Shown here: positions 1 through 27,749 of the stretch, one piece after another
How positions within the stretch are numbered: the stretch's first letter is position 1
Layout: every line of letters begins with the position of its first letter
Notes under the pieces: generated by a model
Seen by the model: only the letters and a program-made list of their open reading frames with translations
What the model was told of the DNA's origin: nothing
Databases searched by the model: none
Position numbers and translations under genes: made by a program
Origin: Chrysochromulina tobinii
Taxonomy: Eukaryota
Assembly (NCBI GenBank): GCA_001275005.1
Contig: JWZX01002258.1
Coordinates: forward strand, 1 to 36,244
DNA length: 36,244 nt
Direction: 5' to 3'

Positions 1-3000
1 CGTACGCGAGCGCCTCGTCCGTGCCCACCGCCTGGCCGCCGAGGTCAAGGTGGCGCAGGTGCGCCGCGAGCGTGAGCACGCTCTGCACCAGGTCGGCATG
101 GCACCTCGGGGCCGAAGACGCTCCCATCCGAGCCGGGGCTCAGCCCGCTCAGCCGCAGCTCGGCAACCGGCGCCGCGCTCGCTCTCAGGCCCTCGAGGAT
201 CCGCGCCAGCGCCGCCGGCGGGCACAGTTGGTGTGTGAACAAGCACACAGGCGAGTGAACAGGCACAGGAGGCGTGTGAAAAGGCACGGTCGGCGGCGGC
301 ATTGACGTACTCGGCGCAATAAGCGCCGCTGTTGTGGGCGCTGTTTCACTGCCGGGCAACGGCGGCGGCGGTGGGGGAGCAAGCGGTGCAAGGCCCCCGG
401 GCAACGGCGGCGGTGCGAGCGGCGGCGGTGCGAACAGGGGCGGCGCGAGCGGCGGCGGTGCGAGCAGCGGCGGCGCCGGTTGCTTCTTCAGCTGCTCAAC
501 CTCCGCCTTCAGCTTCGTCAATGCGGCCTCCTTTGCGCTGATTTCACACTTAAGCGCGGCCACCTCTTCGGCGTTCACAGCGCCCGCCGCATCCTTCACA
601 GCCGCCTCGGCCGCCTCGGCTGCCGCCTTGGCCGCTGCCTTAGCCGCCTCCGCCGCCTTGCGCTCCGCGTCGTTCTGAGCGCTCAGCGCGGCGGCCACGG
701 CCACCTCTGCGCTGGCTGCAACGGCCCTCGCCGCCTCCAATGCCGACCTGAGCTCCGAAATCTCCGACCTGAGCTCCGATATCTCCGACGGGTCCTGTGC
801 AACAAACGAGGATCGCGCCGACAAGCATGCATCCGCCGTGGCGGGCGCTGGACTCATGTGCGGCGGCGAGGTCGTCGAGGTCGCCCGGGAGATCGTCGCG
901 AGATCGGACGGGGTGCGCGCGGGCGTCGCCGGCGCCGTCGTGGGCACCACGGCCGCCGGCGCGGTACCGGCGATCTCGGCGAGATCTGCGCGCATCTCGA
1001 CGATCTCGGCGAGATCTGCGCGCATCTCCTCGTCGTAGACGGCAATCTGGATCGCGATGATCGTCTCCACTTCGTCGCCGCCGATGACGTTCATCATCGG
1101 GCGCGTGAGCTCGATGAAGTCGAGATCAGCGAGCTCATTGCGCATGCGCACACGCGTCCCGATCTCAGGACAGCCCGACACGATCGCGTTGATCAGCGTG
1201 AGCCGATGCGCGTGCGACCTCGATCTGGGCTTCCGGAGCTCGTCGACGAGCAGCTTGAAGGGTTGCGCGGCGCTGGAGGAGGCGGCGGGTGCGGAGCAAT
1301 GGAAGTAGTAGAGCTCCTCGAGTGCGGTGAGGACGACACGGTGGCCTGCGGCCTCATAGAGCGCGACCGCCGAGAGGACATGCACCGCCATCTGCACGAG
1401 CTCCTCCTCCTCCGCGAGAAGCAACGACCCACCTGCGTAGGGGGAGCGCCGTGATGAGCACTTGCATGCTGGGCAGGCTCCTCCTCCGTGCGCATGCATA
1501 GGGAGAGCGCCGTGATGAGCACTTGCATGCTGGGCAGGCTCCTCCTCCGTGCGCACTCACGACCCACCTCCGCTAGCAAAGGCCTGGCACACGAGGGCGG
1601 GGGACGTGATGACCCCAGCGAGCCCCTTGTCGGTCCGAATGAGCGCCTTGAGGCATCTCATCGCGATCTCGATCCGCTGATTGTCCGAAGGCGAGCGCTC
1701 CGAGTAACGGCAAAGCCCAGCAAGCAAGGTGGACAGGGCGGCGGTGCCCGACGGCTGAGAGTTGACGAACTCGGCCACCTGCGAAGGGAAGGCGCCGTGC
1801 TGAGCACCCGCATGCTGGGCCAGGGCGAGGAGCCGATGGTGTGGGCGCCGAGGTGAGCACTCGCATGCTGGGTCAGGGCGGCGGAAGGCGCCGTGCTGAG
1901 CACTTGCATGCTGGACAGGGCGGCTCACCTGAGAGACGGGCGCGCCACGGAGCCATGCTTCAGTGCCGAGCAGCTCTTCCAAATCTGGATCGTTGAGCAG
2001 CACTGCCGCGTAATGCTCCGGGCCGGGCCCTTCACAGGCACTAAGTGTGAAGTCGTAACCTGCCATCAGAGGTCATCAGTGGTCATCAGAGGTCATCAGC
2101 AGCCATCAGGGGCCATCAGAGGTCATCAGAGGTCATCAATGGCCATCACATCAGAGGTCATCAGCGGCCATGGGTGACCGGCCATCGGAGTTCAGCGAGA
2201 ATCAGTGGTCATCAGTAGTCATCAGCGGCACCTTTGAGCATATCTCGCTTGATCTCCTGTCATCAGTGATCATCAGTGGTCATCAGTGGTCATCAGAAGT
2301 CATCAGCGGCACCTTTGAGCATATCTCGCTTGAGCTCCTTGCTGAGCTTGAAGATGGCCTCTGCTTTCACAGGAGGCAGGCCGAGCGCCGAGACCATCTG
2401 CTTCAGCGCCTCGTCCAGCTGCTCGTCGGGGATCGCGGGCGCCGCCGAGGCCGTCGTAGGCGCTGATGACTCGACCACCCGTGACGAAACCGCCGATGAC
2501 GAAACCGACTCGGTGCGCGCCAAGTCGCTCTCAGGCTTTTTCGCCATACCGAAGAAGCCGGCGGCACGGCCGAGCATACCCCCCCCCGAGGCCTTTGCGG
2601 CCGGCGCGGCGCCGCCCACCGTCTTGCTGCGCCCCAGAGCTTCAAGAGGAGCCTTGGGCGGCGCCACGCGGGCGCCTTCCTTTGCGACGGTCACCGAGGC
2701 GGAGCGCTGCATCGCGTCGCGCGTGGCAGCCTCGAGGTTCATCCCGATGTTGGCGAGCCACATCTGTCGGTCGTCGGCCGACTTGGCGCAGTAAATCATC
2801 TTCGCGTGAGTCGTCTCGATGATCAGGTACGATGGCGTGCCCGTTGGGGGCCGCACCCCCGCAAACTCATCGTACGACCTCGCGCTCAACACCTGCTTCA
2901 CGTCATCCTTGCTTCGCGGCGGCCCGCGCGCGTTTTGCGGCGAGTCATAGTAGACAAGGTCCGTGCCCCGGAGCACCGCGTACAGCTTGTTCCATTCCTT

Positions 3001-3090
3001 GTTGTTCTCCTTGAGCCTGAAGAGGTAGCCCTGGCACTGGTCGATGCCAATGGAGGCGCGCGACGACGTGCGGAGCAGCATCGATGCCAT
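1..3090 (-). CDS. Formin-like protein (PH - GBD/FH3 - coiled coil - FH1 polyproline - LRR-like), 3' end outside window. Exons 3090-2313, 2059-1929, 1778-1568, 1432-~105, then ~82-<1
   Basis: PH motif (GYLFRLKENNKEWNKLYAVLRGTDLVYY...SADDRQMWLANI), GBD-like DEALKQMVSALGLPPVKAEAIFKLSKELKRDML, armadillo/FH3-like RCLKAL..., LTLINAIVSG...RVRMRNEL...IQIAVYDEE, then coiled coil and (LAPPP)n. GT-AG introns at 2312-2060, 1928-1779 and 1567-1433 keep the frame. Confidence 0.8.
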
Positions 3091-3233
3091 GCCGTCGAAT
3101 GGGCGTCACCGGCTACGCAGCGGGTTGCCGCGACTCCTCGCGAAGCCACCGAGCGAGGCGACCCAGCCCCTTGGTGCGAGAGCAAGCTCATAGGAAAACT
3201 TGACAAAACTAAGTTCCGGCGCGCCCGGACATA

Positions 3234-7810: not shown

Positions 7811-9572
7811 ATGCGTGCGACGTCGGCCGAGGAGCAGGAGGAGGCGCCTACGGTGAAGAAGGCCAAACACGAGGAGCAAATACGCGTGCGAGCGCGAGAT
7901 GGAGAGGAGGCCACATTGTCGCGCGATGCAGCCCGACTCATGGGCACCTTGAAGGATCTGATGGATCTCGCCACCTCCGAGGATGGCATCTATCCCATGC
8001 CCACGATCATGGCCTCGACGTCTTCAGATGGTGTGCAAGCTGAACGACCCAGACTATACGTGGATGAGCTGGAAGAGCGATTCGCTCTTCCAGCTCATCC
8101 AGCTCATCGAGGACGCCCTCTATCTGGACGCCCCCATCGCGCTCAAGCACATCCAGCACGCGATCGCCTCCCGACTCAACGGAAAGCGCGCCCCCGAACT
8201 CTGCGCGCTGATCGGCGCGGGTGGTGACTTTGGCAGCGCGGAGGAGCACGCGTCGCACGCTGCAGCGGCGTCAAACGCCGAGCCGGCTTTTGTACCGGAA
8301 GATGTCGTTGAGGCGCCGCAGCAGCCGGCCAGCTCCACGTTACCGCCCGAGCCGCTGCAGCAGCCCTCGTTCTCGGCGGATGCCATGGAGGCTGCTCTGG
8401 GCCTGGTGGACGTGGCCACGTTGGCCGAGCTCAAGGGCGTGACTCGATTTTGGCGGGCGCTGGCGCAACGTGTCCTCTGCTCGCGCCTGTGCCGCCGCGA
8501 CGGGCAGCCAGTACCCACACGTCTGGATGAGATCACCGACCTTGACGTGGAGCAGCTCATCGAGGCCGGCCGGCACGGGGACGCGGCCGTAGCGGGGCGG
8601 ATGCTGCCTGGGCTTGCGCGCCTCCATGGCTACGGCTATGTGGTGGACGTGGCTGCTGTTCGGGCCGCGGATCTGCGAAACGGGGCTGGCAACACGCGCC
8701 CCCCGTCCTTGCTACATGGTACAGCTAGGGATGCTCTCAACAGCTGCATCTCAGGCGAAGGAGAGCCGCCATTGGAACTGACGATCGCAGCTGTTGCCTG
8801 TGCGGGCTCGAGAGTCATTTGCGGCATCCCGGTCCAGCTAATGCGCGAGGATGGCGTCACCAAGCTCAACATGTCCAATAGGGGGCTCCACGTGGCTGCG
8901 GCCATGCTCATCGCCTATCTCATCCCTGCTACATCGGTGCTCAAGAACTGCAACTTGCTCAAGAACAGGTTCGACGTTGAGTCGGCCACGATGCTCGCCA
9001 AGATTGGCGCGGAGAAGGGTATCATGATCTCGGGCATGACGCGCGACCAGACGGTGGCCAATTTCTTTAATCAGAACCTCCAACCCGCCGACGCCATCCT
9101 CATCGCATCTGACCTGATTTTCATGGCGGTGGTGACCGAGTTGCGCCTCGGTTCGAACCCCATCGGAAACAACGGTGCCAAGGCGATCGCAGAGGCGCTG
9201 AAGGTCAACACGGTCCTGACCCAGCTGTGGCTCAACGACAACAAGATCGGCGACAACGGTGCTAAGGCGATTGCGGAGGCGCTGAAGGTCAACACGGTGT
9301 TGACCAACCTCTACCTCGGGTACAACTCCATCGGGGTTGAGGGAGCTAAGGCTATTGCGGAGGCGCTGAAGGTCAACACGGTCTTGACCAAGCTAGTCCT
9401 CTACAGCAACCTCAGCATCGGGGATGAGGGCGCCAAGGCGATCGCGGAGGCGCTGATGGTCAACACGGTCCTGAACAACCTCGGCCTTTTGAACATTATT
9501 TTGGGAGATGCAGCAAAAACAGCGTTGCAAGATGCGGTGAAGGGCCGGAGAGGATTTCAGTTGTCTCTGTAG
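7811..9572 (+). CDS. Skp1-like + F-box-like + RNI-type LRR fusion protein with a +1 frameshift at ~8021 (pseudogene, allele or assembly error)
   Basis: Skp1 POZ-like IRVRARDGEEATLSRDAARLMGTLKDLM...YPMPTIMAST. After removing one base it continues LQMVCKL...LFQLIQLIEDALYLD...IASRLNGKRAPELCALIG...DF (Skp1 dimerisation helices). Then F-box-like ADAMEAALGLVDVATLAELKGVTRFWRALA and 28-aa LRRs (NxIGDxGAKAIAEALKVNTVLTxLxL). Confidence 0.75.
9130..9490 (+). repeat. ~84-bp coding tandem repeat (28-aa NLRC3/NOD3-type LRR units, ~4 copies)
   Basis: Repeated aaggcgat(c/t)gcggaggcgctgaaggtcaacacggt at ~84-nt period. Confidence 0.9.
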
Positions 9573-9737
9573 ATTGTCCTGTGCGAGCACTGTGAAAATG
9601 TGCGGATCGCTGCTGTGGGTGGCAGCTGGATAAGTTTACGGCAAGTTTTCACACGGTCGTTCACAACCCTGCATTTCTCTCCTCCCCTGTGCGGTCGGCG
9701 CACGCGTCGGCGGCACGCGGCGGAGTACCAGAAGGAG

Positions 9738-10292
9738 ATGAATATGATGCGTGCTTCGCTGCTGTGCCTCGTCGCCGTATTCGCCATCAGCTGCGCAGCA
9801 AATGACGACGTGTTGAAGGCGGTTCGCATGAAGACGACCCGGCAGCTGCGTGAGATCTTCAAGGAACTCGATATTGATGCGCCAGCTTCGCTGTCCAAGG
9901 AGGAGCTGCAAGCTTTGGCCCTGAAGGAGAACGCTGTCTCGCGCTGGGAAGAGCTGCATCCGGAGAAGAAGCGCAAGCCCAGAGGCCCAGGGCCCGGCGG
10001 GTTTGCATTCGGTGGAGACGCGCCTGAAGGCATTGATCCTGACACATGGGCAAAGCTCAAGGCTCAGATGAATGGCGACTTCTCTTACGAAAAAGACCCC
10101 GAGAAGGCCCGGATCCTAAAGAAGCTCAAGAGCATGGGCATCTCGTTTGGCGGCGCCTCGGACATGGACATTGAGCAGCTGCGAAATCTTGAGCAGGCCA
10201 TGGGGGGCATGAAGGATGGATCCGGCTTCCGGACGCCAGGCGGTGGGGCTGGTGCGTCCGAGCCTGAGGAGATTGAGAAGCAAGAGCTTTGA
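9738..10292 (+). CDS. Secreted/ER-resident protein with signal peptide, SAP-like helical motif and C-terminal KQEL
   Basis: N-terminal MMRASLLCLVAVFAISCAA. VRMKTTRQLREIFKELDIDAPASLSKEELQALA resembles a SAP/ARMET-C fold. Ends in the KDEL-like KQEL. Confidence 0.75.
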   Translation: MNMMRASLLCLVAVFAISCAANDDVLKAVRMKTTRQLREIFKELDIDAPASLSKEELQALALKENAVSRWEELHPEKKRKPRGPGPGGFAFGGDAPEGIDPDTWAKLKAQMNGDFSYEKDPEKARILKKLKSMGISFGGASDMDIEQLRNLEQAMGGMKDGSGFRTPGGGAGASEPEEIEKQEL

Positions 10293-10718: not shown

Positions 10719-13700
10719 TCACCCCGTCTTCCCGAGCCTCGCGATGATCTCGGCGCAAGTGGGTGCGACGTGCTCGAGCCACAACTTGTGAAGGCCATGG
10801 GCCACATTCTTTTGGCGGATCCTCTGGGACTCTGCGTCGATGTTGAGGTGCTCGACGCACTCACCAACCTTGAGGAGCTCGGGCGTCCTTTGCACGGTGC
10901 CCCACTCACGTACGAGCGTCGGCAGGCTCTCCCTGAGCTCATCCAGCTGCATCTGGCTCGTGTCATGGGGGTAGCTGATCGGAGCTTGGTGCGGCCACTC
11001 GACGAGCGCGTTGAGCGGCGAGCGTTCGCAATACCAGCGCTTGCACAGCTCGCCCAGGCCCTTCGCATCCAGCTCGCTTCGGAGCTTCGAGTTGCCAAAA
11101 GTGCTCTTCTGTCCCCAGGCGAGCTCGCGATCGGCCACGTTGCGCACCTCCGCCTTGAGCGCCGCGTGCGCGCGGTGTACATAGGCCGTGGTGAGTGCCT
11201 GGAGTAGCAGCTTCGCTCGCGATGCCTGCTCGGCGATGAGGAGGGACTTATGATGAGGGGCACAATCTCACATGCAATCAGAGGCAATCAGCACACCTGC
11301 TCGGCGATGAGGAGCTGCAATCAGAGGCAATCAGAGGCAATCAGAGGCAATCAGCACACCTGCTCGGCGATGAGGAGCTGCAATCACATGCAGTCACATG
11401 CAATCAGAGGCAATCAGCACACCTGCTCGGCGATGAGGAGCTGCAGCACCGAACGCGTCGAGCCCGGTGCCTTGACCTGCAGCTTGAACAGCGTGAAGAA
11501 GATGGTCGTGCGCAGCGCTTTGTTGTAGTGGCACTCGGGGCCGCTCAGGCCAGTGCATCTGAGCGCGGAGTGCGCGAGCACCGGCAGCACAGCCATGGTG
11601 GCCAGCTTCGCATCCTCCGAATCGAGCGCGTTCGGTGCGCGGCCGAGCGCCTTGAGGAGCTGTAAGACTGTGAACAGCGCCTTGTAAGCGACGGTCGCGC
11701 AGTTGCTCAGCTCCGAGAAGGCGCTGGGCAGGGTGGCCGGTAGTAGGCAGCGAGGCAGCAGCAAGTCCTTTACAATCAGCTCGCGCGCCATGTGCCGATG
11801 GGGTTTGATGAGCGCGAGGATCAGCGCGCTCTGCCCCGGATCCTGATGAGGCCTGAAGAGCGCGCTCATCCCCGGATCCTTCGCCTCGCCTTCGTTCGCA
11901 TGAGCGCCGGCACCGTGCACGCCTCTCGCGCCGCCCGCGCCGTGCACGCCACTCGTGCGAGCACCATCCTCGGGAAAGAGGAAGCCTTGACCGAGCTTGC
12001 GGACCGACGATCGGAAGTCGCTGTTGTGGTCGCGCGCGATGCGGCATAGCCCGCCCAGCACGCCGTCTAGTTCGGGGTGCACGCACGCCGAGTAGGGCGC
12101 CGACGCGGCGCCCTCGGCGAGCAGCAGGTCAATGAGGCAGCCGAGCATGACGCTCGAATTGGCACAAAGCACGAAGGGCAGTCGACTGAGCAGCAGCGCC
12201 GCCGCACGCACCGCAAACTCGGCGTACCGGCGCACGCCCTCCGAGCCGCCAGGCCCACCGCTGCGCACCTCGTCGAGCAGCCGAGGGAGCGTTTGCGCCA
12301 TCTTCTTGAGCGCTCGCTCCTGGCGCTGCAAGGCGCTCCTTGTGGGCGCATCTGCGGGGGGTGGGGCGGCGTAGGGCGCCTCGGACGCTCCACCCGTCCG
12401 CACTGCTCCCCCCGGCTGCACGGTGCTCGCCACGTGCTCGAGCGCTGTGGCGAGCAGTGCCACGCGCCCCGCCTCAAAGGGAGTCGCCTCGACTGACACG
12501 ACCGGCGCGCGCACGAGCGTCTGCAGCAGCGGCGAGGGCAGCGCGAGGGCCGCCGGATGCCGTCTCGCGAGCGCGCGCAGCTCCTGCGTGAGCATCGGCT
12601 GCAGCGTTGGGTGCACGCGCGGCTCGATGAAGGCGACCCACCTGTGGGGAGGGGAGGGGGCGCCGTGGTGAGCACATGCATGCACAGGACAGGGGGACTG
12701 ACGAACCCTCGATGAAGGCGACCCACCAGATCCTCTCCAGCTCCTCGAGCCGCGGCTGGACGAAGTCTTGCACGATCTTGCGCTCGAGCTGCTCGTCGGC
12801 GCCCTGGAGCGGGCGCAGAAAGTGGCGCGCAAACCACGCGGGCACGCACCGTCGTGCCTGGCGCTCAGCGAGGCTCGGTGCGCCCGGCTGCTGCTTGCGG
12901 TCGACCCCAGCCGTGTACTGGTGCTCGCCCGTCGCCGCGCTCCATGCACTCGCTGCATGGCGGAGCGCCGTGTCCTTGCGCACCGCATCGCCGCTGCTCG
13001 TCAAGGCACTCTCGAGCAGCAGCCGTTCGGAACGCCCCCAGCAGCGCACGAGAATGCTCAGCAGCATCGGAGCGCCGGCGGCGCCGTCCTGGGCGCCCAC
13101 TGAGCACGTGTGGAGGCGCGAGAGCCGATCCTGCAGAGCTGAGCCCCCCCCCGCGGCGTTGGGGGTGCGCCAGCACGGCTGCTGCAGCTGGCGAACCAGC
13201 GCGCTCGTCCACTCGCTACGCGCGGCCGCAAGGATGATGTCGCAGTCGTCGTCGTCGTCGTCCCCGCCGCCGTCGCCGCCGCCAACGCCGCCGCCACCGC
13301 TGCTGCCGCCGCCGCCGCTGCCGCCGCCGCCGCCGCCCAGCGCGGGTCTCGTGTCGCTGGCCGCTGGCACCGGCGTCGCGGCCGTTTCGAGCGCCGTCTC
13401 GAGCACCTGGAGCGCCGCGAGGCAGAGCTCCGGCAGCGCCGTGGTGAGCACTTGCATGCAAGGCAGGTCATCAGTGGCAATCAACGCACCTGGAGCGCCG
13501 CGAGGCAGAGCTCCGGCAGCGCCGTGGTGAGCACGTGCATGCAAGGCAGATCATCAGTGGCAATCAACGCACCTGGAGCGCCTCGAGGCAGAGCTCCGGC
13601 ATCCCGTGGCGCACGTGGTGCGCGAGCGTCGTACTGAGCACCTCGAGCAGCCCGCCGTCGACGGCGTAGTCGCGAAGGGGCACGGCGCTCAGTAGCACGC

Positions 13701-16700
13701 GGAGCAATGCGAAGCCACGCCGCGCGACCGCCGCGTCGTCCGCTGCCAGCGACGAGGCCGACGACGGCGACGGCGCGGTCGCGCTCACGACGGCGCCTGC
13801 GGCCTCGGCGTCGCGAGCTTTGGTGCAGACTGCGAGGGTGGCGTCGAGCGTCGCGACAAAGGGACGCACGCGTACGGCCGACGGGCGCCGCAGGGCCAGC
13901 TGCACGAGCACAGCACTCGCCTCGAGCAGCACGCAGCGCGCCGCGGCGCACGACGCCCCTAGATGTTCCCACACCTCGACGGGCGCCGTCCCGAGCGCCG
14001 TCCCGAGCGCCGTCCCGAGCGCCGTCCCGGGCGCATCGGCCCCGGCGCCTCGGAGCCGGTGTAACCGTCGGCTGGCCTCCTGGAGCGCCTTCGGGGCCAT
14101 GGCGTCGTCGTAGGGCAGGTGGGCACACACGAGGAGCAAAGCTGAGCGCGCCCATAGTAAGTCGACGGCCGCGCCCGCACCGGCGCCGCTCTCGCCAGCG
14201 CCGCCGGCGCCGCCAGCGCCGCCAGCGCCGCCAGCGCCGCCGGCACCGCCAGCGCATCTCTCGTCGCGTATGGCGCGCAGCCCGGCGACGCAGCACGCCT
14301 CATTGGCCCACGTGAGCAACTTGCTCTTGGCCTGGATGGCGACGCGATGGAAACGCACGAGGGCCTGCGCCATCACGCAGCGCAGCGCCGTTGTGAGCAC
14401 TTGCATGCAAGGCAGGTCATCAGTGGCCATCAGCGTACCTGCGCCATCACGAAGCGCAGCGCGAGCACGCGCATGCTCTCCCCCCCCGCGCACATGCATG
14501 CCTTGTAACCGCCACCGACCGACGGAGCGCCCGGCACGGCGCGGGGCGTGCCGTCGCGCCGTACCGGTACGGCCCACTCCTCGAGCGGCGGGAATCGGCA
14601 CTCTGCCAACGTCCGCGGCGCGCGCCGAGGCGCCGTCTCGAGCGCCTCGAGCTCCCACCGGTAGACGCCGAGCGCGCCGTCGAGGGCACCGCCCCAGACG
14701 CTCGAGAGCGAGCAGCAGAGGCAGAGCATCGCGCGGGCCGACGCCGCATCCGCAGCACCAGAGCGCGCGACCCTTGAGGTGAGCTCGAGTACCAACGGCC
14801 AGTTGGGGCGCAAGTAACCGCCGCCGCCGCCGCCGCCGCCGCCTCCTCCTCCTCCACCACCACCTCCGCCTCCGCCTCCTCCTCCGCCGCCGCCGCCTAT
14901 TGCAGCGCCGGCGCTGCTGTCGTGGGCGTCGATGTGAAGGGCGACGAGCTGGGGCACTGCGGCCCCAGCGCCGTCGAGGGCGTACAGCGGCAGCAGCGTG
15001 TGCAGGCACGCGACCCGCCACTCTATCAAGTTCAACTTCTCGAGGCCTTCGTGGGCGCTCCCGGCGGGCAGTGCGATGCCCACGGCCCGCATCTCGGAGT
15101 TGAGAAGCCCTGCAGCACGCCGATGAGGGGGACAATCAGAGGTCATCAACGGTAATCAGAGGCAATCAGAGGGCGCGATCCCCTCACCGCCTGCAGCACG
15201 CCGATGAGGGGGACAATCAGAGGTCATCAACGGTAATCAGAGGCAATCAGAGGGCGCGATCCCCTCACCCCAAAAGGCGCGCGCCGCCTCCGCTGCCGCC
15301 TGAGCCGCGGAGGCACTCTCCGAGTCCTTTGCCCACGGCGACTCGTCCTCCATCCAGCGGAGAGCCCCACGCTCGGCGGCGGTCGGCAGCGGAAGATCGT
15401 CGAGCACGCGTAGCAGCCGATGCCAAAGCGCGAGGAGTGGTCGGTCGATTGGCCGCGCGGGCGCCGAGTAAGGCTCACGGAGGGACGCGATCAGCTTGGG
15501 GGCACGCGCGTCGGCAGCGCCGTGCTGCGGCTGCTGCTGCTGCTGCTGCGGCGGCGGCGGCCGCAGTGCCGTGCCGGTAGCGTAGGGAATGTGGAGGAGC
15601 TCATCGCGCTGTGGCGGTGGCAGTGGCGCGAGGGCGTGCGCCTCACGCTGCATGCACACGAGCGGGAGCAGCTCACGCATCGTGGCACGCGCCTGGTGCA
15701 GGAGCATCCGGCGCAGATCGGCCGCGCTCGCGTCGGCGCTCTTCCTCGCCCCGGCCGCCTCGACCCCGGACGCCGCTAGGGCGCGCGCTGTCTCGAGCGC
15801 TGCGTCGCCGAGGGCACGCAGCCATTCGAGGCACAGCGCGCGGATGCGCACGTGCGTGCGCGCGGCATGCGCGAGGGCCGCCTTCGCGTCCGTCAGCGGC
15901 ACGTCGGCGGCGGCGGCGCTGCTACCGTCAGCGGGGTGTGCGTGTTTCGTCTCGTCGTTGAGCTGGCAGTTAGCCTCGCCCTCGGTGCCGGGAGCGAGGT
16001 GCTCCACCCACCACGGCATGGCACCATTCGGCGCGCTGTCGAGCACACGCATCGTCGTCGCCCCCTCCACCAGCACCCGTCCGAGGCGCTGCGCAAAGGC
16101 CGCCGCCTCGGCCGCCGCGTCGGCCGCCGCCTCGGTCGCCTCGGCTGGCACGCTGCTCGCACTCCACAGCGCGCGGCTCGCGCGCAGTGCGGCGTGCAGT
16201 TCGGGCGGAAAGGCGCCGCACCGCTCAGCCGCCTTGGCGCGCGTTGCGAGACCTCCGTGAGTGAGCGCCGTAGTGAGCACCGCCAGGGCGCAGCGCAGAC
16301 GCTCAAAGTGAAACGGCAGCTCGTCAGCGAGGCGAGGCCCTATGGGCAGAGCCCACCGCCCTGATGTCGTCGCACCTGCCGCTGCCGCCGCTGCCGCCGC
16401 TGCCGCCGCTGCCGCCGCCGCCGGGCGGTCAGATGCGGCCGCAAAGGCGGCTGCGAGTGGCTGCGCGGCGACCATGGGTGGCAGCGGCGAGGGGGCGGGC
16501 GCCAGGGCGTCCACCGTCGCGCCGTCGATGAGTGGCACGAGCGCAAAGCCCGCAGGTAGCGGCAGCGTCGGCAGCGGCATTGGGGCCAGGTTGAGGACGC
16601 ACACGGGCGGTGCACTCACGGCGCTGCTTGCGGCGGCAGCAGCTGGACGCTCTCGAGACGCCGCGCCGTGAATGTGAATGGGACGCTCTCGAGGCGCCGC

Positions 16701-19700
16701 GCCGGCGGCCGCCCTCTCACCGACATCTGACCCCACGTCCACCACTCGCTGCTCATCCGTCCGTTGGCTCGCGTCGCGACGGGCGTCCCCATTTGCCTGA
16801 GGCACTCGTGCCTTTCGCCGACCTGCTTGCGGCGAGGGCCTGTCGGCTGGCACATGGCGGCGCGCCGACGGCGACGCGCCGTCGTGCGAGGCGCCCAAGA
16901 CGGCGCTCACGTCCTCGCGCCGGCGCTGCAGCCTCTCGAGCATAGCATCGATGGTGGCCAACGGGCGCGCGCGCATGCTGCCGGCCGCCGCCCGGCCCAT
17001 GCGGCTCCGCGGGCGGATCTCAGCGGTGGAGCTATGCGAATGTACATTCGGTACGTTGGAGCCAGGAGGAGTCGCTCGGGGCGGCCGCGGCGGCGGAGGT
17101 AGCATCGAGCCGCCCCCCCCCACCTTGGGCCATCGTGCATCGAGACGCTGCTGCTGGAGCGAGGGCGGCACGAGCGGCGCCTTGCCATGGTTACGCATGC
17201 CGCCGGTGCCGCCGCCGCCGCCGCCGCTGCCACCGCTGCCGCTGCCACCGCTGCCGCTGCCACCGCCGGGCAGACAGGGCAGCTCGGCGAGAGGCTTTGC
17301 GTGCGGCGCCTTCCAATCGGTGGTGCATTGACTAGGCCAGCCCGCGCGCTGATGGCGCTCGTCCGCTGTATAAGCGGCTCGTCCGCTGTGAACGGCGCTC
17401 GTCCACTGTGAATGGCGCTCGTCGACTGCAGTGGCGGCGGCGGCGGCAGCCGGGTTCGTCGGGCCGTGACGTGTGCACGGGCACGTTCGGCTGCACACGA
17501 GGCAGCGCCATCGTCGCGCCGACTGACGGATGAAGGCGTCGAGCGCTTGCGCGCGCTCCCTCACTGGCATTGGGGCGCTCATTGGGGTGCCCGCGCCAGC
17601 GGCACACACATCGCCCTCGGCGTCGGCAGCACCGGCGGCGCCGTCGCTGACGCTGTCTGTCGCCCCTACGAGCACTCCCAGGCAATGCGTGCAGTAAGTG
17701 CGGCTGCAGCTCACACAGTGTACCCCGTCGCGCAGCCCGCCGAGCGCCGCCTCGAGGCGATCCTCATCATGCCCAAGCCCTTGACTGCCGGCCAGTCGCC
17801 CATGCCACGGGGGCAGCGTGACGCCATGGCACAGGTGGCAGAAGGGGCTGTGACGATGCGGGTAGGCTGGCAGCTCAGCAAACGCAAGGCCCTGCCGCAG
17901 TGCCGCGAAGCTCAGCCGCACGGGCGGGAGCGGACGCGGAGGCTCGACGACGGCACTACCGCTGCCGTGGACCTCGAGCTCGTCCGCACCACTGCCCTCA
18001 GCTTCGCCGCTATGGCTCTCGGCGGCCTCAAGGTCGACGGCCTCACGGCGACGCTTCTCGCCGCGTGCTGCCTCTCGCCCGTGCGCATGCCCCCGGTGCG
18101 AGTGAACCCCCCGATTCGAATTCAGCGGCGTGCTGCGCTGCTGAACACGTCGCTCGACCCATCGCTGGAAGCTCACCGGATGCCGCCGCCGCGCGTCGAG
18201 CCGATGCTCTGCTGGAGCCGCCTTGCCTGCGCGAGCCAACAGCGCGGGCCGCACCGGCCGCACTGGCCGCACCGCGCCGTCCGCGTCCGCTGCTGCTCCT
18301 GCTGCCGCTGCCGCCGCTGCCGCCGCACGAGCCTGCTGATGCCGCTGGCGCGCTCGTGCACGCTCGTCGATCTCCTCTGCGGTCAGAGCGGCGAGCTGTG
18401 CCATCCTCGCACGCTCCCACGGCAGGCACGGCTGCTGCTCAGCGGGCGCGAGGCGAAAGCGGAAGCGTCCATCCTCGAGTGCCTCGACAGTGTAGAGCCC
18501 ATCGTACCGGTAGCCGCCGTGCGGCGCGAAGCTCGATCGCAGCTTGTGGTGGCGCACCACGCGCACGGCGCGACCCCTGGCTGCTGAGAGCGAGAGCCAA
18601 TGCTCGGCGTGCTCGGCCGCGTGCTCGGCCGCCGTCGCTGGCGTCCCATGCGCGTAGGTGAACGTGTCGCCGCTGTCGTCGACGTGATCTCCGGGCCAGT
18701 GCGTGAGCAGCAGGGAGTGGGCACCGTGCGCGTCCGTGCCCGAGACGCCGTGCTTTTTCCCCACATGCACGCCCGCCTCGTGAAGCCCCTCGAGCGTCCG
18801 GAAGATGACGCCGCTCGGTACGGCGCGCAACCCGCCAACGGCCCGCGCATGCCTCGGGCAGCGTGGCACCTCGAGAGGCGCCACCGCCGGGTCGGGCCGC
18901 GCCCGCTTGGCCGGCCCCAGAGCGGCGGCGCCGCCGTTGCTGCCGCCGCCACCGCCGCTGCTGCTGCCGGTGCCACCGCCTGGTGCGCCCTTGCGTTTTC
19001 GCGCCAGCGCGGCAGGGAAAAAGTCGTCGTCGCTTCCCTGCAAGTCGTCATCGACAGACGCCTCGCCTGCCAGATCGTCCTCAGCCTCGTCCTCGTCCAT
19101 GTCCTCCACATCCTCGCTCCCACTCGAGCTGTCCCCGTCGCGCATCCGATAGGCACGCGGCACGCCGCGGCCGCCACTCCCGCCGCCGCCGCTCCCGCCG
19201 CCGCCTTCGTGACGCCGAGCGCCGCGCTGACCTTTGTCTACGCCCGCGAGCTCCCGCAGCGCATCGAGCGAGTGTCCCTTGTACTGGAGCGCGGCCCAGC
19301 CGTTGCCTTTCTCGAAGCCCGGAAGCTTCTGCCGCCCGATGGCCGTCTGCAGTGCGAGGAGGCGCAGCAGACCCGACGGCCAGAAGCGCTCGCCAGCGTG
19401 GCCGGGGCCGCCCGCGGGCAGGCTGATGAAGCCTCGAGCATCAAGGTTGGCCGCCGGTGGCAGGAACACGCCATTCCACACGACGCGAAGCACGCCTATT
19501 CCCGCGCGAACACGCAGACCCGGATCGAGATGACGCGACTTGCGCATCAGCTCGTGCAACGGCCCGTGCTCGCCGAGATCGCGCTCATCCGCCTCGTCGT
19601 AGGCCTCTCGTGCAGCGCCCGGAGGGGCCTCGGCGTCGTGCTCATCGTCGGTGTCCTCGGGCTCGTCATCGCTGTCGTCCGGCACGTCGTCCTCGTCCTC

Positions 19701-20074
19701 GTCCTCTTCAATCTGTATGACGCGCTTGGCCGGCCGCCGTGCGGCAGGTGGCGACTTGGAAGGTAGAAGCGCTCGAGCAGTCGCCGATGGTCCTGAGGAA
19801 CTCTGCGAGGTACCCTCAGCCGAAGATGGACGTAGTGCGAGGAGCTTGCCGATGACTGCGGGCGCAATGGCAACGGATATGCGTCAACGGGCAGAAACGG
19901 CAGGGCGCGCCAGCTTTCGCGGCACGTACAGGCTCGGAATTGCTGTGGATCACGTAAAGGGTCCTCAGAGCGCTGGCTTGCTTGGCGGCGCGGGCGGACG
20001 ATCTCGTCGCCCGCCCCATCCTCCTCCTCGTCCGCATCACCGCGGGCAAAGATAGCTGTGGTGAGATGTGGCAT
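10719..20074 (-). CDS. MMS22L-like protein with N-terminal RAMA, SRA/YDG and zf-4CXXC_R1-like domains (~2866 aa). Exons 20074-19930, 19855-15269, 15109-14439, 14364-13573, 13406-12727, 12641-11423, 11225-10719
   Basis: Seven exons joined by GT-AG introns give 8601 nt in one frame, with phases checked. RAMA-like at 19559-19251; SRA at ~18840-18420 (GVH...GVSG...GAHSLLL...DDSGDTFTY...AVRVVR...YRYDGLYTV); Cys cluster at ~17845-17465. MMS22L-like motifs: LLALWHRLLRVLD, AFWGLLN, LHTLLPLYALDGAG, PNWPLVLEL, AMLCLCCSLSSVW. Confidence 0.75.
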
Positions 20075-20509: not shown

Positions 20510-23243
20510 TCAATGGAAGCCTCTCCAATTGTGCGTGTCGTCATCGTCATAGATGCGCCGTGCGAGCGGCGGCGCCGCGCTCCACACTTCGCGCAATCTC
20601 GCCACGCTCGCGTCGTTCATCGCCCAGAAGCACGGCGGCTGCCGCGAGCCGCCATTCCACTCGCCCCGCTCGGCCGAGCAGAGGGAGGCCACACCTTGTG
20701 CCTTGGGGATCGCCCAAAAGTGACGGCGCCAGCCGCCGACCAGGTGGCGATCGAGCACCTGCGCAATCGGTGGCAATCCGAGGTCACCCGAGGTCACCCG
20801 AGGTCATCCGAGGTCATCCGAGGTCATCCGAGGTCATCCGAGGTGGCGCTCGCGAGCACCGGCTGGCCGCCGTTGGCCGTCGACAGGTCAAATAGGACGA
20901 CGCCCGCGGCACGGCCGGCGCTGCAGTTGGCCGCCGCGTGCGGGCAGCAGTAGTCAGGGCTCGGGCAACAGAGCGTGTTCGAGGTCGGGTCGAGGATGAA
21001 GTCCGACGGCCGCTGGCACACTCCCGCCTCGACGACCCAATTGCCACGTGGCAGAAAGTCGTAGAGCGGGTTGAGGTAGGAGTCGGAGCCGCAGGGGTTC
21101 GAGCTGAACGCCCCCTCCACCAGGTAGCCAAGCATAGGCAGCGCGGTGCGGTTCGTTTGCCACTCGCGCGCCTGAGTTAGGGATAGGTCCCTCGGGTTAG
21201 GCTTCGGGTTGGGGTTAGGGGTTCGGTTAAGCATAGGTAGCGCGGTGCGGATCGTGGGCGCCACTCGCCTTGGTATCCACCATGAGCGCGTCAGGCAGTT
21301 GCAATCAGTGGCGATCAGTGGTCTTCAGTAGCAATCACCTTGGTATCCACCCTGAGCGCTTCAGGCAGGCTCCAGTCCATCTTGTGCAGCCAGTGGTTGC
21401 GCGGGAAAGCTCGCAAGAGCCTCATCTTAGACGGGTCGAGGGCCGCGATGGCGCCGCGCAGCCGCGTGCGCCGCTCATCATCCGGCGCGGCGCTCGGCAC
21501 GGCGCTCGGCATGGCGCCCAATACGGCGCCGGGATCGTCGAGATGCAGGCGCATCGCGGCGACGAGCGCGGCTGAATCCGAGCTCTTCCAATCTCGTTGC
21601 AGCTCGTACCTGAGGTGAGAGGCAATCAAGAAGTCATCAGAGGTCATCTGAGAGGTAATCAGATACGTCATCAGAGGCCATCATTATTCATCAGAGCTCA
21701 TCAGTGGCAATCAGAGATGTCATCGGAGGCCATCATGCGTCATCAGAGCTCTTCAGTAGCAATCAGAAATGTCATCAGATGTCATCAGAGCTCATAGGAG
21801 GCGATCAGCTCGTACCGGAGCGCCCCTAGGAAGCAGTCAGTAAAGGCCATGTCGAATGCATGCAGTGTGTCGGCCACACGGCTTTCCTGGCGCCAGCCGC
21901 CCCCCTTGAATGCATGCGCCACCCTCTCCCGCCCGCCGATCATCCACTTCGTCAATTTCGTCCACTCGGCGAGCTGCTTCTCGCTCGCCTTCTCGCTCGC
22001 GGCGGGCGGCGGACTCCATACCATCCGCCAGCCGTGACCGCGCTCGTGCCTGATGAGGGGCGTCATCGTGTGTCGTGTGCAGGCCTTCAGAGGCAATCTT
22101 AAAGGCCAACTTAGGCCATATGCCCTGAGTGACAATCGGAGGTCATAAGTGGCCATCAGGGGTCATCAGAGGTCATTAGATGTCATCAGAGGCCATCAGA
22201 GGCCATCAGAGGCCATCAGAGGTCATCAGAGGCCTTCAGAGGCCTTCAGAGGCCATCAGAGGTCATCAGAGGCCATCAGAGGCCATCAGAGGCCATCAGA
22301 GGCCATCAGAGGCCATCAGAGGTCATCAGAGGTCATCAGAGGCCATCAGTGGACAAGTTTTGTACCAGAGGAAGCGGATGCCGTGCAGCGCTCGCAGCCT
22401 CCCACCCGAGTGTACCTGAGGAGGAGAGAGGGGGAGGCCATCAGAGGTCATCAGAGCCCTCAGAAGCAATCATAAGCAATAAGAGGCCATCCGAAGCTAT
22501 GCGAGGCAAATTAGCGTACATCGCCCAATATCGGCCCAAAGCTCGTCTTGAAGCGCATGTCGTACCGAGTGATCAAGACTGTCTTGTACGCGGCTCCGCT
22601 CAGGCGGCAGTGCTCCTGGAGCGCCCGGATGGCAGCGAGCGTGCTCAGGATCTGCTCGCTCGCGCTTGCATCGAGCGTCGTAATGAGCTCCAGGTGCTCG
22701 CCGAACGGCCGTCGCAGATCCTCGAGCGCACTCGGCCGGCGCACGTCCGCGTCGTACACAGTGAGGAAGACCTGGGCGAGGGCACGACTCATACCCCAGG
22801 CTGGTTACTGGCTGGTTCCGGTGGGTGTGTAGCGCAGGAGAGGAAGAGATCAGGAGGAGAAGGAGCCTCCTCACGAGCAGCAGAGCGAAGCTGAGTTCGA
22901 GAAGCAGACCACGCACCCCTACACGATCGCCAAGCTCCGCAAACGGACGTACGATCATGCGTTGGACCGAGAGTGCGCACTCGATCTGGGCCGCGCGGTT
23001 GACTTCTGGTGTTTCTGACCCACGGAAGGCGCCACCGCGTAGCAGGACTGCGAGGCCGCCGCCGCGAGCATGGCCGGCAGCCTTGCGACGGTAGATGCAT
23101 CGTGCGTTTAGACGATCGAGAGCGGCCTCAATGAGCCAGGTGGCGTTGGGCATGCGGATTTGGAGCTTGGTCGCATACCAGTCCTCGCACAAGGAAGCGT
23201 GGCGCCGCGCCGAACCCGGTGGCAAACCGACCGGCAAGCCCAT
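20510..23243 (-). CDS. Uncharacterised 564-aa protein with glycosyltransferase-like N-terminal region and Cys-rich C-terminal region. Exons 23243-22917, 22771-22520, 22415-22366, 22049-21816, 21609-21339, 21171-20860, 20758-20510
   Basis: Exons join in phase to 1695 nt. Motifs LAVLLRGGAFR...VFLTVY...YKTVLITRYDMRF...IRFLWHE...DTLHAF resemble uncharacterised GT-A-like families. C-terminal CCPSPDYCCP. Confidence 0.7.
22150..22348. repeat. Intronic decamer satellite (GG[CT]CATCAGA)n, roughly 20 copies
   Basis: Direct reading of the sequence inside intron 22050-22365. Related decamers occur in introns at 2060-2312, 11226-11422, 15110-15268, 20759-20859, 21610-21815, 22416-22519 and 24155-24244. 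Confidence 0.95.
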
Positions 23244-23425
23244 CCCTCAGCCCGTGAGCGACGCGCAAATTTCTCGCAGCATGCAAGGCCTTGCTCTTCG
23301 GGGCCGACGAGTTCGACTAATAAGGGTCATACTTGTGGAGGGAGAGAGCTCCGTCGCAAGCGCTCTTCATTCGCTGGGTTGACCGAGGGATCATGGAAAG
23401 TTCACGACAGAATCTTAATAAAGGC

Positions 23426-24730
23426 ATGCGCACCAGCAGCACACTTCTTTCTTGTGTGGCGACGGCGGCCTTGTGCATCGCAGGCGCCTCGCCCCGGTTG
23501 CATCCCACGGCTGCTTGCGTGCGCTGCCATGCTGCACCGGTGTGCATGGCAAAGGGCGATGGGAAAAAGTCACGTCCGCCAAAGGCACCAGCGCCGCCGC
23601 CTGGGCCGCCAATGGCACCACCAGAGGTGGCACCGCGCTCGGGCAGGATCACGCAGGGCGGTGCCGTATCTGGAAGTGGCAATGTGCTGAGCGTGCGGCA
23701 GCAAATTGCCATCGTCCGCTCCTTCAAAAAGATGGCGGCGGCTGGTCCGGCGTCGCCAGCCAAGCGCACCTCGTTCCGCAAGATTGCCAAAGAGGGAGGC
23801 GATCGCAATACCACGAAAGCCGTGGACGAAGACGTTGAGGTCGATTTGCGCGACCCCTTGCTATTTATCGATGGGTACAACGTGATCAACATGTGGCCGC
23901 GGCTGAAGAAGCGCTTTCAGAAGGGCGAGCTCCTCGAGGCTCGTGAGATGCTCCTCGCCGACGTGGCCGACTTTACGATCAGCCGCTTCGAATCTGTGGT
24001 GGTCTTCGATGCCAACGGGGCGGCCGACCGCGTCGAAGGCAAGGATCGCGAGGAGACGTACGCGAGCGGCCTCGTGCGCGTGGTCTACGCCCACGACAGC
24101 GCCGACGCGTACATTGAGCGTGAGACGAAGGCACAACGCGCCGAGGGTCGACCGGTGCGCGCGCGTGGCCACGAGCGAGGTTGACTGATGACCTCTGATG
24201 ACCTCTGATGACCTCTGCGTGCCCTTGATTGCTTCCCTCATCAGGTGCGCGTGGCCACAAGCGACAACGGCATCGCGACAGCGTGCGCGATGTATGGCGC
24301 GTCGGTCGTGTCCTCCCAGTTCATGGTGACGGAGCTCAAGGCGAGCCGCAACGCCGCCGCCGCCATCATCGACGAGTTCAACCGTCGTCAGGTTCGCGCC
24401 GCGGGGCTCTCACGACCGCTCTGGGACGCGTTGCCTTCCGACTTACAAGAGCAGTGGGACGCGTCGATACAGGCCGACGTCGACAAGCGGCTCACCAAGG
24501 CGCAGATCGCGGCCAAGGCTGCGCACGAGGAGCTGCTCAAGAGCGGTGCGCTCGACCGTGGCGCCGCTGCCCGGCGCAAGCAGCTCGAGCGACAGCGGTT
24601 GCGGCGCCGGCCAGGTGCGGAAGAAGCAGGCACAGGAGCAACCGAAGGCGATGCGGCGCGCGGGACGATGGACGATGAAAAGCCTAGCTCGCTATTCGAT
24701 GTGCTTGAGGATGGGCTTTTTGACGCGTGA
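23426..24730 (+). CDS. NYN_YacP (Rae1/DUF901-like) ribonuclease, probably plastid-targeted. Exons 23426-24154, 24245-24730
   Basis: LFIDGYNVIN...AREMLL...VVVFDA...SADAYIER...VRVATSD...GASVVSS catalytic NYN motifs. N-terminal signal peptide plus transit-like peptide. 90-nt GT-AG intron in phase 0. Confidence 0.88.
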
Positions 24731-25871: not shown

Positions 25872-27749
25872 CAGGAGCGGAAATAGAAACTGCGCTCTGT
25901 ATCGTGGAATCTGTGCTCCCTACGTTGGTAAGCCCTAGGTATCGACACTCGGAAATTTGTGGGTCCCTCATTTGCTGCGAGTGCGACCCAAGAGGGGTCC
26001 TCGGAAACTCGGAAACTCGGAATCTGGAATTTGGGGGTCCCCTGGGCTCGGACCCAAGAGGGGTCCTCGGAAACTCGGAAACGCGGAATCTGGAATCTGG
26101 GGATCCTTTGGGCTTGCGACCCAGGAGGGGCCCTCGGTCCAGCTCGGAAACTCAGAAACTTGGAATCTGGAATTTGGGAGCCCCTCTCCTCTGCCTTGGA
26201 CCGAAGAGGCAAGAGGGGGCCTCGGAAACTCGGAAACTCGGAATCTGGAATTTGGGGGCCGTCCCTTGCGCCTTGGGCTCGGACCCAAGAGGGGGCCTCG
26301 GAAACTCGGAAACTCGGAAAAATCTGGAATATGCCCAGGAGTATCCTGGAATCTGCACACTCGGAATCTTGGAATCTGGAATTTGCAGAGGAGTATCCTG
26401 GAATCTGCCCATGAGGAAACATGGAAATATCTGGATTTTGGGATCCCTCTGCGGACCCACGGAGGGGCCCCGGAAACTCGGAAACTTGGAATCTGGAATT
26501 TGCAGAGGAGTATCCTGGAGTCTACACAGAACACACTTGGAAACATGGAATCTGGATTTTGGCATCCCTCTGCAGACCCACGGAGAGGCCCCGGAAACTC
26601 GGAAACTCGGAATCTGGAATTTGCTATTTGGAAGAATTTGGGTTTCCGTGCTGCAAGGTTGCCCCCCCCCCCCCTCGCGCTCTGGGTGACCGCTCATCCC
26701 TCCCCGGGCCCTCCCCGCCCTGGTCGACCGTGGGTCAACAGCTTTTCGTAAATGGACATCTCATGATTGTACATGTACCTCGAAACTCGGAATCTTGAAA
26801 AGTTTTGCGTTCGCGTTCAAGATGCCATCGGCACCAAAATCCGCTCGACCAAGAACGATCACCTACGCCACTATTTCCCGATCATGCCCTGCTGCCTTCG
26901 CTCACCATCGCGTACGTCGACTCGCAAAGAACGCAAAGATACACTCGACACCGTCGCGTGACGACAGTGTCGAGCGACAGGTCGCTCAAGTAGTAGCTCT
27001 TGTTCAGCAGCCAGTCAAAAGCGCCTACAGCGCAAGCCACTGCCAATGGCGCGCCTGTGCCTGCTGGCTTGGCAGGCGCCGCGCAAATCAAGCGCAAATC
27101 CAATCGTGCGGAAGTGGCGGTGCAGCATGTCCGCTGATACGGCCATCACAGCTGAGAAGAGCAGCGCGACTTTCAATGCGCCGCGCATCAGCCGGTGTGG
27201 CAAGGATGCGAGCGTGCTCCGACGCGATGCCGAGCCGCCCGCGGCGCGCGCTGCAGCGACGCGCGCTCTGGCCAAGCCGTTGCGCGCGCCGGGGGCCTTG
27301 CAACGTTGCAAGGGCCTTTCGCGTGCGGGAAACGTGCATACATGCAGCAGGGACATGCAGTACCGGTAAAGTGATCGCATTTTCCACTTTCCAAGATTCC
27401 GAGATTCCAAGACACAAGAAAAAAGAAAGGCGGTACCGGTTCAAAAACACCGGGGGAGCCGGACACACTATTTTGGGATTTCCAAGAACCAGCGCGGGTC
27501 ATCCAGATTCCAGATTCCACGCCTCGCCCCGGATTTTGGAGAAATGGACAGTTTCCAAGAACCGGCGCGGGCCATCCAGAATCCAGATTCCGCGCCTCGC
27601 CGCGGATTTTGGAACTTGGACAGATTTCAAGATCCAGATATCGCCATGCAGAATTATTCCAGATTACGCGCCTCGCCCTGCGATTTGGAAATTGAAAGAC
27701 AAAATACAGATTCCAAATTCCGAGACAGCAGTTTCTGTTTACGCTCCTG
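25872..27749. mobile_element. Non-autonomous DNA transposon (TIR element with subterminal repeat arrays; Tc1/mariner-like ends)
   Basis: 25867-25893 and the reverse complement of 27728-27754 match at 24/27 nt. Ends read TA|CAGGAGCG...CGCTCCTG|CA. Left arm has GGAAACTC/GGAATCTGGAATTT arrays; right arm has the same motifs inverted (CCAGATTCC). No transposase ORF. Confidence 0.7.
25940..26800 (+). repeat. Subterminal tandem array of CTCGGAAACTCGGAAACTCGGAATCTGGAATTT units (~50-80 bp period)
   Basis: Roughly ten or more degenerate copies visible directly in the sequence. Confidence 0.92.

Follow-up and report, generated by a model that had tools for sequence, protein, structure and literature searches.

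The 36,244-nucleotide (nt) stretch of Chrysochromulina tobinii DNA considered here (contig JWZX01002258.1; the window) carries on its minus strand, at 10719..20074, a gene for a single protein of 2,866 amino acids (aa), which we call the window protein. We read it as a fusion of a weak RAMA-like module, an SRA domain and a split zinc finger with a following helical solenoid, likely a diverged relative of MMS22L; the N-terminal modules are predicted to tether the protein to DNA without selecting hemimethylated CpG. As a whole, we give this reading a probability of slightly under one half. The parts are of known kinds; their combination is conserved and appears to be new. No description of the architecture, including any of MMS22L in haptophytes, was found in the literature covered, which comprised titles and the openings of abstracts.

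The gene and conservation of the fusion

Spliced from its coordinates, the gene consists of seven exons and six introns, all of the latter GT-AG and 74-197 nt long; the product is 8,601 nt (2,866 codons), and the lone stop in the spliced frame is the terminal one. A first-pass annotation of this DNA, made from its letters, had proposed one in-frame 7-exon gene, and the limits it gave are matched exactly. GC content over the gene is 62-75%, and the DNA is eukaryotic in type. Exon 2 runs for 1,528 codons without a stop and encodes the RAMA-like module, the SRA, the finger and the first part of the helical body, with 11-34 stops in each of the other five frames. Across the 368-codon linker after the finger, a second frame is likewise without stops, and an open frame by itself is therefore weak evidence in such DNA. 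The junctions of introns 3, 4, 5 and 6 are read through by orthologous proteins, and the FW-x-x-L-N block, which intron 2 interrupts here, is unbroken in the orthologues P0022, P0025, P0026 and P0046. Among the aligned orthologues, no backing was found for intron 1 and exon 1.

The evidence that the fusion is real comes from distant relatives. A search profile made from exons 4-7 and two relatives, and containing no reader-region sequence, retrieved 22 proteins among 1.84 billion, mostly exon-sized fragments. The open reading frames (ORFs) that extend to the reader region form two clusters, both with SRA and finger residues. P0010 and P0024 (2,322 and 2,357 aa) combine an SRA (E 4-6e-8) with the entire body and with ten out of ten finger cysteines. 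In P0022 (1,620 aa), labelled as a metagenome-assembled genome (MAG) of Prymnesium sp., an SRA (E 2e-16) is joined to the second half of the finger, with its final four cysteines, and to most of the body. The motif R-H-x-x-A-G-W-P, which follows the finger, is common to the window protein, P0024 and P0022, and its histidine may be the last zinc ligand. Because SRA, finger and body occur together in clusters whose bodies are only 23-32% identical to that of the window protein, the fusion is old. Judged from the sequences, SRA, finger and body are a single conserved fusion in distant orthologues. The original claim, that reader modules are joined to a helical body, therefore stands for the SRA and the finger in two distant clusters but extends to the RAMA-like module in no orthologue; since the P0010/P0024 and P0022 ORFs begin at or within the SRA, they speak neither for nor against that module.

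Closer relatives were sought in a metagenome scan, in which 3 of 218 pattern matches were confirmed. One locus (L001) is identical to the window across the gene and is for that reason not independent. Another (L002) is 98% identical and has one 1,150-codon ORF running from the SRA into the body. Its exonic indels of 12, 3 and 3 nt keep the frame (a gap of 8 nt where the alignment stops was disregarded as an edge effect), and its substitutions number 12, 21 and 35 at codon positions 1, 2 and 3. In this comparison the linker that follows the finger appears free of constraint, with 3 synonymous and 8 non-synonymous codon changes.

The features of the gene are as follows.

19930..20074, minus strand: exon 1 (aa 1-48), with the ATG at 20074; placed by GT-AG and frame only, with no orthologue backing
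15269..19855, minus strand: exon 2 (aa 49-1577), encoding the RAMA-like module, SRA and finger, linkers of low complexity and the body start; stop-free frame and the L002 ORF
19245..19559, minus strand: RAMA-like module (aa ~148-252); best Pfam family PF18755 at E 0.008-0.04, under the cut-off; not detected by bacterial RAMA profiles
18411..18878, minus strand: SRA/YDG domain (aa ~375-530) with an altered pocket loop and without an NKR-type finger; PF02182 E 3.9e-16, PDB matches to TagI (E 2e-9), UHRF2 and UHRF1
17466..17840, minus strand: split zinc finger (C721 C724 C762 C765 C770 C773 C833 C836 C840 C842 H845); alignment with P0024 and P0022
17334..17357, minus strand: R-H-x-x-A-G-W-P motif (aa 882-889), C-terminal of the finger; kept in the window protein, P0024 and P0022
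15269..15854, minus strand: first stretch of the conserved helical body (aa ~1383-1577), including the LW and FW blocks; orthologue alignment
14439..15109, minus strand: exon 3 (aa 1578-1801) with the W...LY-x-LD, PNW and LC-C...W blocks and a poly-Gly insert; splicing and orthologue alignment
13573..14364, minus strand: exon 4 (aa 1802-2065), helical body; splicing and orthologue read-through
12727..13406, minus strand: exon 5 (aa 2066-2292), helical body; splicing and orthologue read-through
11423..12641, minus strand: exon 6 (aa 2292-2698), HEAT-like solenoid; splicing and structure model
10719..11225, minus strand: exon 7 (aa 2699-2866 and the stop codon); splicing and orthologue read-through

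The SRA domain

The SRA/YDG domain named in the first-pass annotation is confirmed by Pfam (PF02182, E 3.9e-16, 59.6 bits against a cut-off of 30.7), as it is in P0010, P0024 and P0022. Its closest solved relatives in a PDB sequence search are TagI (E 2e-9), UHRF2 and UHRF1, and SRA structures were the only PDB matches to the predicted model of the reader region. The core motifs are retained in the algal copies, though the pocket loop varies: G-Y-x-D-D is kept in 8/8 bacterial SRAs and in 0/3 algal copies, and the algal loops differ among themselves. A core that is kept and a pocket loop that varies fit DNA binding without canonical readout of 5-methylcytosine (5mC).

The NKR finger loop of the UHRF1 SRA is the source of its hemimethyl selectivity. 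The corresponding region gave no alignment here: the match to UHRF1 and UHRF2 breaks after F-T-Y, and the loop in its place is rich in Ala, His and Glu and variable among orthologues. The 5mC pocket of UHRF1 is made up of Y466, D469, Y478 and T479 (PMC5995235), a motif that neither P0022 nor P0024 retains. Two registers fit the loop of the window SRA: the TagI alignment places W and D at the positions of Y466 and D469, with a Tyr as the equivalent of Y478, and the UHRF alignments place P and H there. A His before V-D occurs in both the window protein and P0022, which favors the second register. Compared with the SRAs of UHRF1/UHRF2, SUVH and TagI, the domain is alike in core motifs and fold, but its G-Y-x-D-D loop is remodelled, the NKR-finger region is absent, and Pfam finds no RING, SET or HNH partner in the window protein.

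The zinc finger

The finger consists of ten cysteines and a histidine, with two long insertions, in a spacing like that of zf-4CXXC_R1; all ten cysteines are found in P0024 and the last four in P0022. Set against the cysteine pattern of the family, it shares with CDCA7 (class I, HMZF) and with the class III fingers of IBM1, JMJ24 and DMM-1 the order and spacing of the cysteine pairs and the ending W-x-C-x-x-C-x-x-x-C-x-C. It was as a zf-4CXXC_R1 finger that it had originally been annotated, and the spacing and CxxC order resemble that family, but Pfam gives no PF10497 match to the finger. A PDB sequence search with the finger had no real match at E <= 10. The weak matches obtained were to DNMT3-ADD (E 0.001-0.004) and IBR; a DNMT3-type ADD is disfavored, because 18 residues matched and the score is below cut-off.

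CDCA7 orthologues are defined by 11 cysteines together with R274, G294 and R304, and the same report describes divergent zf-4CXXC_R1 variants without a direct link to DNA methylation (PMC10538959). R274 and Q275 confer hemimethyl selectivity on CDCA7 (PMC11343034). The window finger, with ten cysteines rather than 11, long insertions, no PF10497 match and none of the ICF or hemimethyl-reading residues, is rejected as a true CDCA7 finger. In a reading anchored on the cysteines it has H, G, R and L at the positions of R274, Q275, G294 and R304, for which we assume the placement relative to the cysteines (R274-Q275 after the second). By its residues the finger is a divergent type and not a CDCA7-type sensor, and it fits the divergent zf-4CXXC_R1 classes as these are delimited in PMC10538959.

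The RAMA-like module

PF18755 (RAMA) was the top Pfam family in 4/4 overlapping, non-independent pieces of the module (E 0.042-0.008), and the other RAMA motifs are visible by eye, in order and with insertions. The hit counts for something because the family had been predicted beforehand, from sequence and without tools. The module shares with the RAMA domains of MPND, MYSM1 and bacterial restriction-modification fusions the top Pfam family, an N-G-W motif and the terminal helix; unlike them, it scores below cut-off and is missed by two bacterial profiles. We think it reasonably probable that the module is of RAMA ancestry. The RAMA domain of MPND bound DNA containing N6-methyladenine (6mA) in pull-downs, whereas that of MYSM1 was not 6mA-selective (PMC6591016). 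Among the eukaryotic RAMA fusions in the accessible part of a published catalogue (PMC4738411), none is with SRA or MMS22L and none is from haptophytes.

The helical body

Five MMS22L-like motif blocks lie in the order given by the first-pass annotation, at aa 1523, 1576, 1608, 1679 and 1706. They coincide with the most strongly conserved islands of the body among orthologues that are about 25-35% identical, and all five recur in order in P0022, P0025, P0026 and P0046, while P0045 shows the last three. We take human MMS22L to have counterparts of the five blocks in the same order, together with two further blocks upstream and one downstream. On the strength of this motif order, we consider it quite probable that the body is of the MMS22L type and a divergent relative.

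A fold model was made for the C-terminal 450 aa of the orthologue P0009 from a 23-sequence alignment. It is an all-helical HEAT-like solenoid with a predicted local distance difference test (pLDDT) value of 82.6 and a predicted template modelling (pTM) score of 0.81. Its nearest folds are generic HEAT/ARM proteins, the best being exportin-4 (Z 13.4, root-mean-square deviation 7.6 over 285 residues). Foldseek gave no neighbor of this model at E <= 0.001, and no MMS22L chain is among the listed fold neighbors, which excludes nothing. A homologue search with the body start in exon 2, over proteins of 840-2,674 aa, found nothing, and a profile of the N-terminal body matched only P0045 and P0046. 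PDB sequence searches with exon 6 and two body profiles gave only noise, and an Atlas search with exon 3 gave no usable match.

Animal MMS22L binds RPA-coated single-stranded DNA and RAD51 and is brought to new chromatin by TONSL through H4K20me0 (PMC9409234); it has also been described as a CUL4-DDB1 adaptor (PMC6396947). Known properties of MMS22L, Mms22 and Mus7 further include binding to TONSL or to DDB1/Mms1, and sensitivity to replication stress when the protein is lost (PMC9409234, PMC6396947). With animal MMS22L (and TONSL) and yeast Mms22/Mus7, the window protein has in common a long helical body of similar extent and a solenoid C-terminal part. The ordered LW, FW-x-x-LN, LY-x-x-D, NW and CC...W blocks are conserved here, and their match to the human protein is presumed. 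The window protein differs in having no Pfam MMS22L match, many Gly/Ala inserts and ~1,380 extra N-terminal residues (SRA, finger and RAMA-like module), whereas the animal protein is anchored by TONSL through histones (PMC9409234). Of the annotated MMS22L-like body, the helical solenoid and the ordered, conserved motifs hold up, but no tool gives the MMS22L name. The body is accordingly described as MMS22L-like and not filed as a family member.

Proposed function and alternative explanations

If the preferred reading is correct, the N-terminal modules would bind DNA directly and anchor the solenoid to it. By analogy with animal MMS22L, the body would act on RPA-coated DNA and RAD51 where forks have stalled or broken, and the built-in modules would take over the chromatin anchoring provided in animals by TONSL. 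By further analogy, with the UHRF1 SRA, which binds DNA interstrand crosslinks (PMC4386029), the modules might grip DNA as such or distorted DNA.

Several results weigh against this reading. The Pfam models MMS22L_N, MMS22L_C and Mus7, the first two singled out for comparison in the first-pass annotation, have no match in the window exon pieces, and the MMS22L models match 0/29 orthologue proteins (E <= 1 or <= 10) and 0/2 trimmed pieces, with HMMER filters that discard weak matches. Profile searches retrieved unnamed algal-type relatives only and no named MMS22L homologue. An Atlas search with P0022 pointed to a generic solenoid class, with LINES (0.93) and FIRRM (0.91) clusters as the best matches. 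According to PMC9409234, plants appear to be without an MMS22L orthologue, so that the protein cannot be taken for granted beyond animals and fungi. The RAMA scores are 14.2-16.6 bits against a cut-off of 35.2 and cover only profile positions 76-99, the C-terminal motif; for the annotated RAMA-like domain, RAMA is the top Pfam family in its pieces but has no match when the whole of exon 2 is scanned. Nor did bacterial RAMA profiles recover it. The first was built from 37 domains (38 had been extracted from 41 loci; the omissions were a sequence containing a stop, two incomplete ones and one whose genome is unpublished) and is dominated by one proteobacterial group; it gave the module no match at E <= 10 among 598 sequences. 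A balanced 12-sequence profile gave it 0.5 bits, which placed it 88th of the 1,446 sequences that received a score out of 2,001, and the hhalign probability was 0.6%. The RAMA piece, searched against PDB sequences and by tblastn against plasmids, yielded only noise, the predicted model of the RAMA region has a pLDDT <50 (mean for the whole reader region, 39), and a viral structure library had nothing at E <= 0.001 for the reader-region model. The module has been seen in this strain only. Finally, in the TagI register the window SRA has W and D, an aromatic residue and an Asp, at the positions of Y466 and D469, and it may yet read methylated bases.

The last point bears on a scenario that we regard as doubtful, in which modified bases direct an MMS22L-like body to its sites, 5mC or 6mA being read by the SRA (and RAMA). 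In its strong form, hemimethylated CpG would be read behind the fork, and recombination would be confined to post-replicative DNA. Such guidance is favored by an SRA far above the Pfam cut-off whose nearest solved relatives are methyl readers, by the TagI register and the Tyr equivalent to Y478, by the 6mA binding of the MPND RAMA and, among haptophytes, by the heavy linker methylation and DNMT5 enzymes of Emiliania (PMC9998398). It is opposed by the loss of G-Y-x-D-D in the algal copies and the His that window protein and P0022 share before V-D, by the lack of 6mA selectivity in MYSM1, and by base composition, a weak test: over the whole window CpG o/e (observed/expected) is 1.15 and TpA 0.52, with no CpG depletion, and comparison with L002 over window positions 14186-18706 shows no excess of CpG transitions (18/1,397 versus 19/1,866, p 0.51). 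Inference of hemimethylation reading, as put forward in the first-pass annotation, finds little support: the pocket loop is altered in 3/3 algal copies, the NKR region is unaligned, and His-Gly takes the presumed place of R274-Q275 in a finger whose divergent kin lack a direct link to methylation. Both candidate hemimethyl sensors lack the selective residues, and binding to DNA or distorted DNA is therefore favored. A narrower version, that of a TONSL-independent haptophyte MMS22L finding new or damaged DNA through RAMA (6mA) and a re-tuned SRA pocket with His for the cytosine-reading Asp, strikes us as quite unlikely.

The remaining scenarios dispute the body or the fusion. The solenoid could be another HEAT/ARM scaffold, FIRRM-, LINES- or importin-like or specific to the lineage, and the protein a chromatin adaptor with SRA and finger. 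That every tool test for MMS22L was blank, that the fold neighbors are generic and that the Atlas matches were to LINES and FIRRM all speak for such a scaffold, yet these matches share only 107-124/256 features, the tool's range for chance or distant kin, and the blocks conserved among orthologues coincide, in order, with those matched to MMS22L, to which the presumed two upstream blocks and one downstream block of the human protein also correspond. On balance we hold another scaffold to be unlikely, though it deserves serious consideration. A chance fusion within an open frame of GC-rich DNA, concealing two genes or transcripts or the decaying relics of modules, could be argued from the seemingly unconstrained linker and its second open frame. 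It is very improbable given single ORFs of 1,620-2,357 aa with SRA, finger and body in two distant clusters, a frame kept in L002 despite its indels, and the conserved finger cysteines and R-H-x-x-A-G-W-P motif.

Intron repeats and neighboring genes

Several introns contain head-to-tail copies of an exon edge that include the splice signal (15109-15269, 13403-13609 and 11268-11445, with periods of 81, 83 and 63), and partial copies are present in intron 3 (14365-14438) and intron 5 (12642-12726). These copies yield spare donors and acceptors. In the P0001 cluster, a relative ~80% identical, coding is continuous across the positions of introns 4 and 5, and this read-through suggests that the two introns were gained or lost recently. 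A 10-bp minisatellite family occurs in introns and spacers at 2062-2306, 11317-11416, 20776-20844, 21617-21795, 22135-22491 and 24185-24217.

The neighbors of the gene show no sign of a functional cluster. Pfam identifies a formin FH3-like protein (45-1556, minus strand), a PH-domain protein (2293-3105, minus strand), an LRR_6 repeat protein (7962-9572, plus strand) and a YacP-like NYN nuclease (23324-24184, plus strand). The LRR gene was considered as a possible TONSL and rejected, as it has only LRR repeats by Pfam. A small gene at 9573-10292 (plus strand), tail-to-tail with the gene studied here, encodes a hydrophobic N-terminus and matches HeH/Rho_N weakly (E 3e-4). Within the upstream neighbor, at 21195-21230, lies a short G-rich stretch that resembles a degenerate telomere repeat. 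Complex nested tandem repeats (periods 29-121) at 25985-27637 have long stop-free frames on both strands and are probably non-coding.

Implications

MMS22L has been described from animals and fungi (PMC9409234), and a conserved haptophyte MMS22L, if true, widens the range of the family. Should the body belong to another family, the protein would still be a conserved chromatin scaffold, though a less informative one. The altered SRA pocket offers a naturally occurring variant of a base reader that has been studied in depth. Should modified bases guide the protein after all, a mark on DNA itself would direct post-replicative recombination, alongside the histone routes used by animals (H4K20me0) and plants (H3.1K27me0). 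Because each of the three modules is small and can be expressed on its own, they allow a direct test of how different lineages target recombination to replicated DNA. If the preferred reading is true, anchoring that in animals is provided by TONSL and histones can be hard-wired within the same polypeptide.

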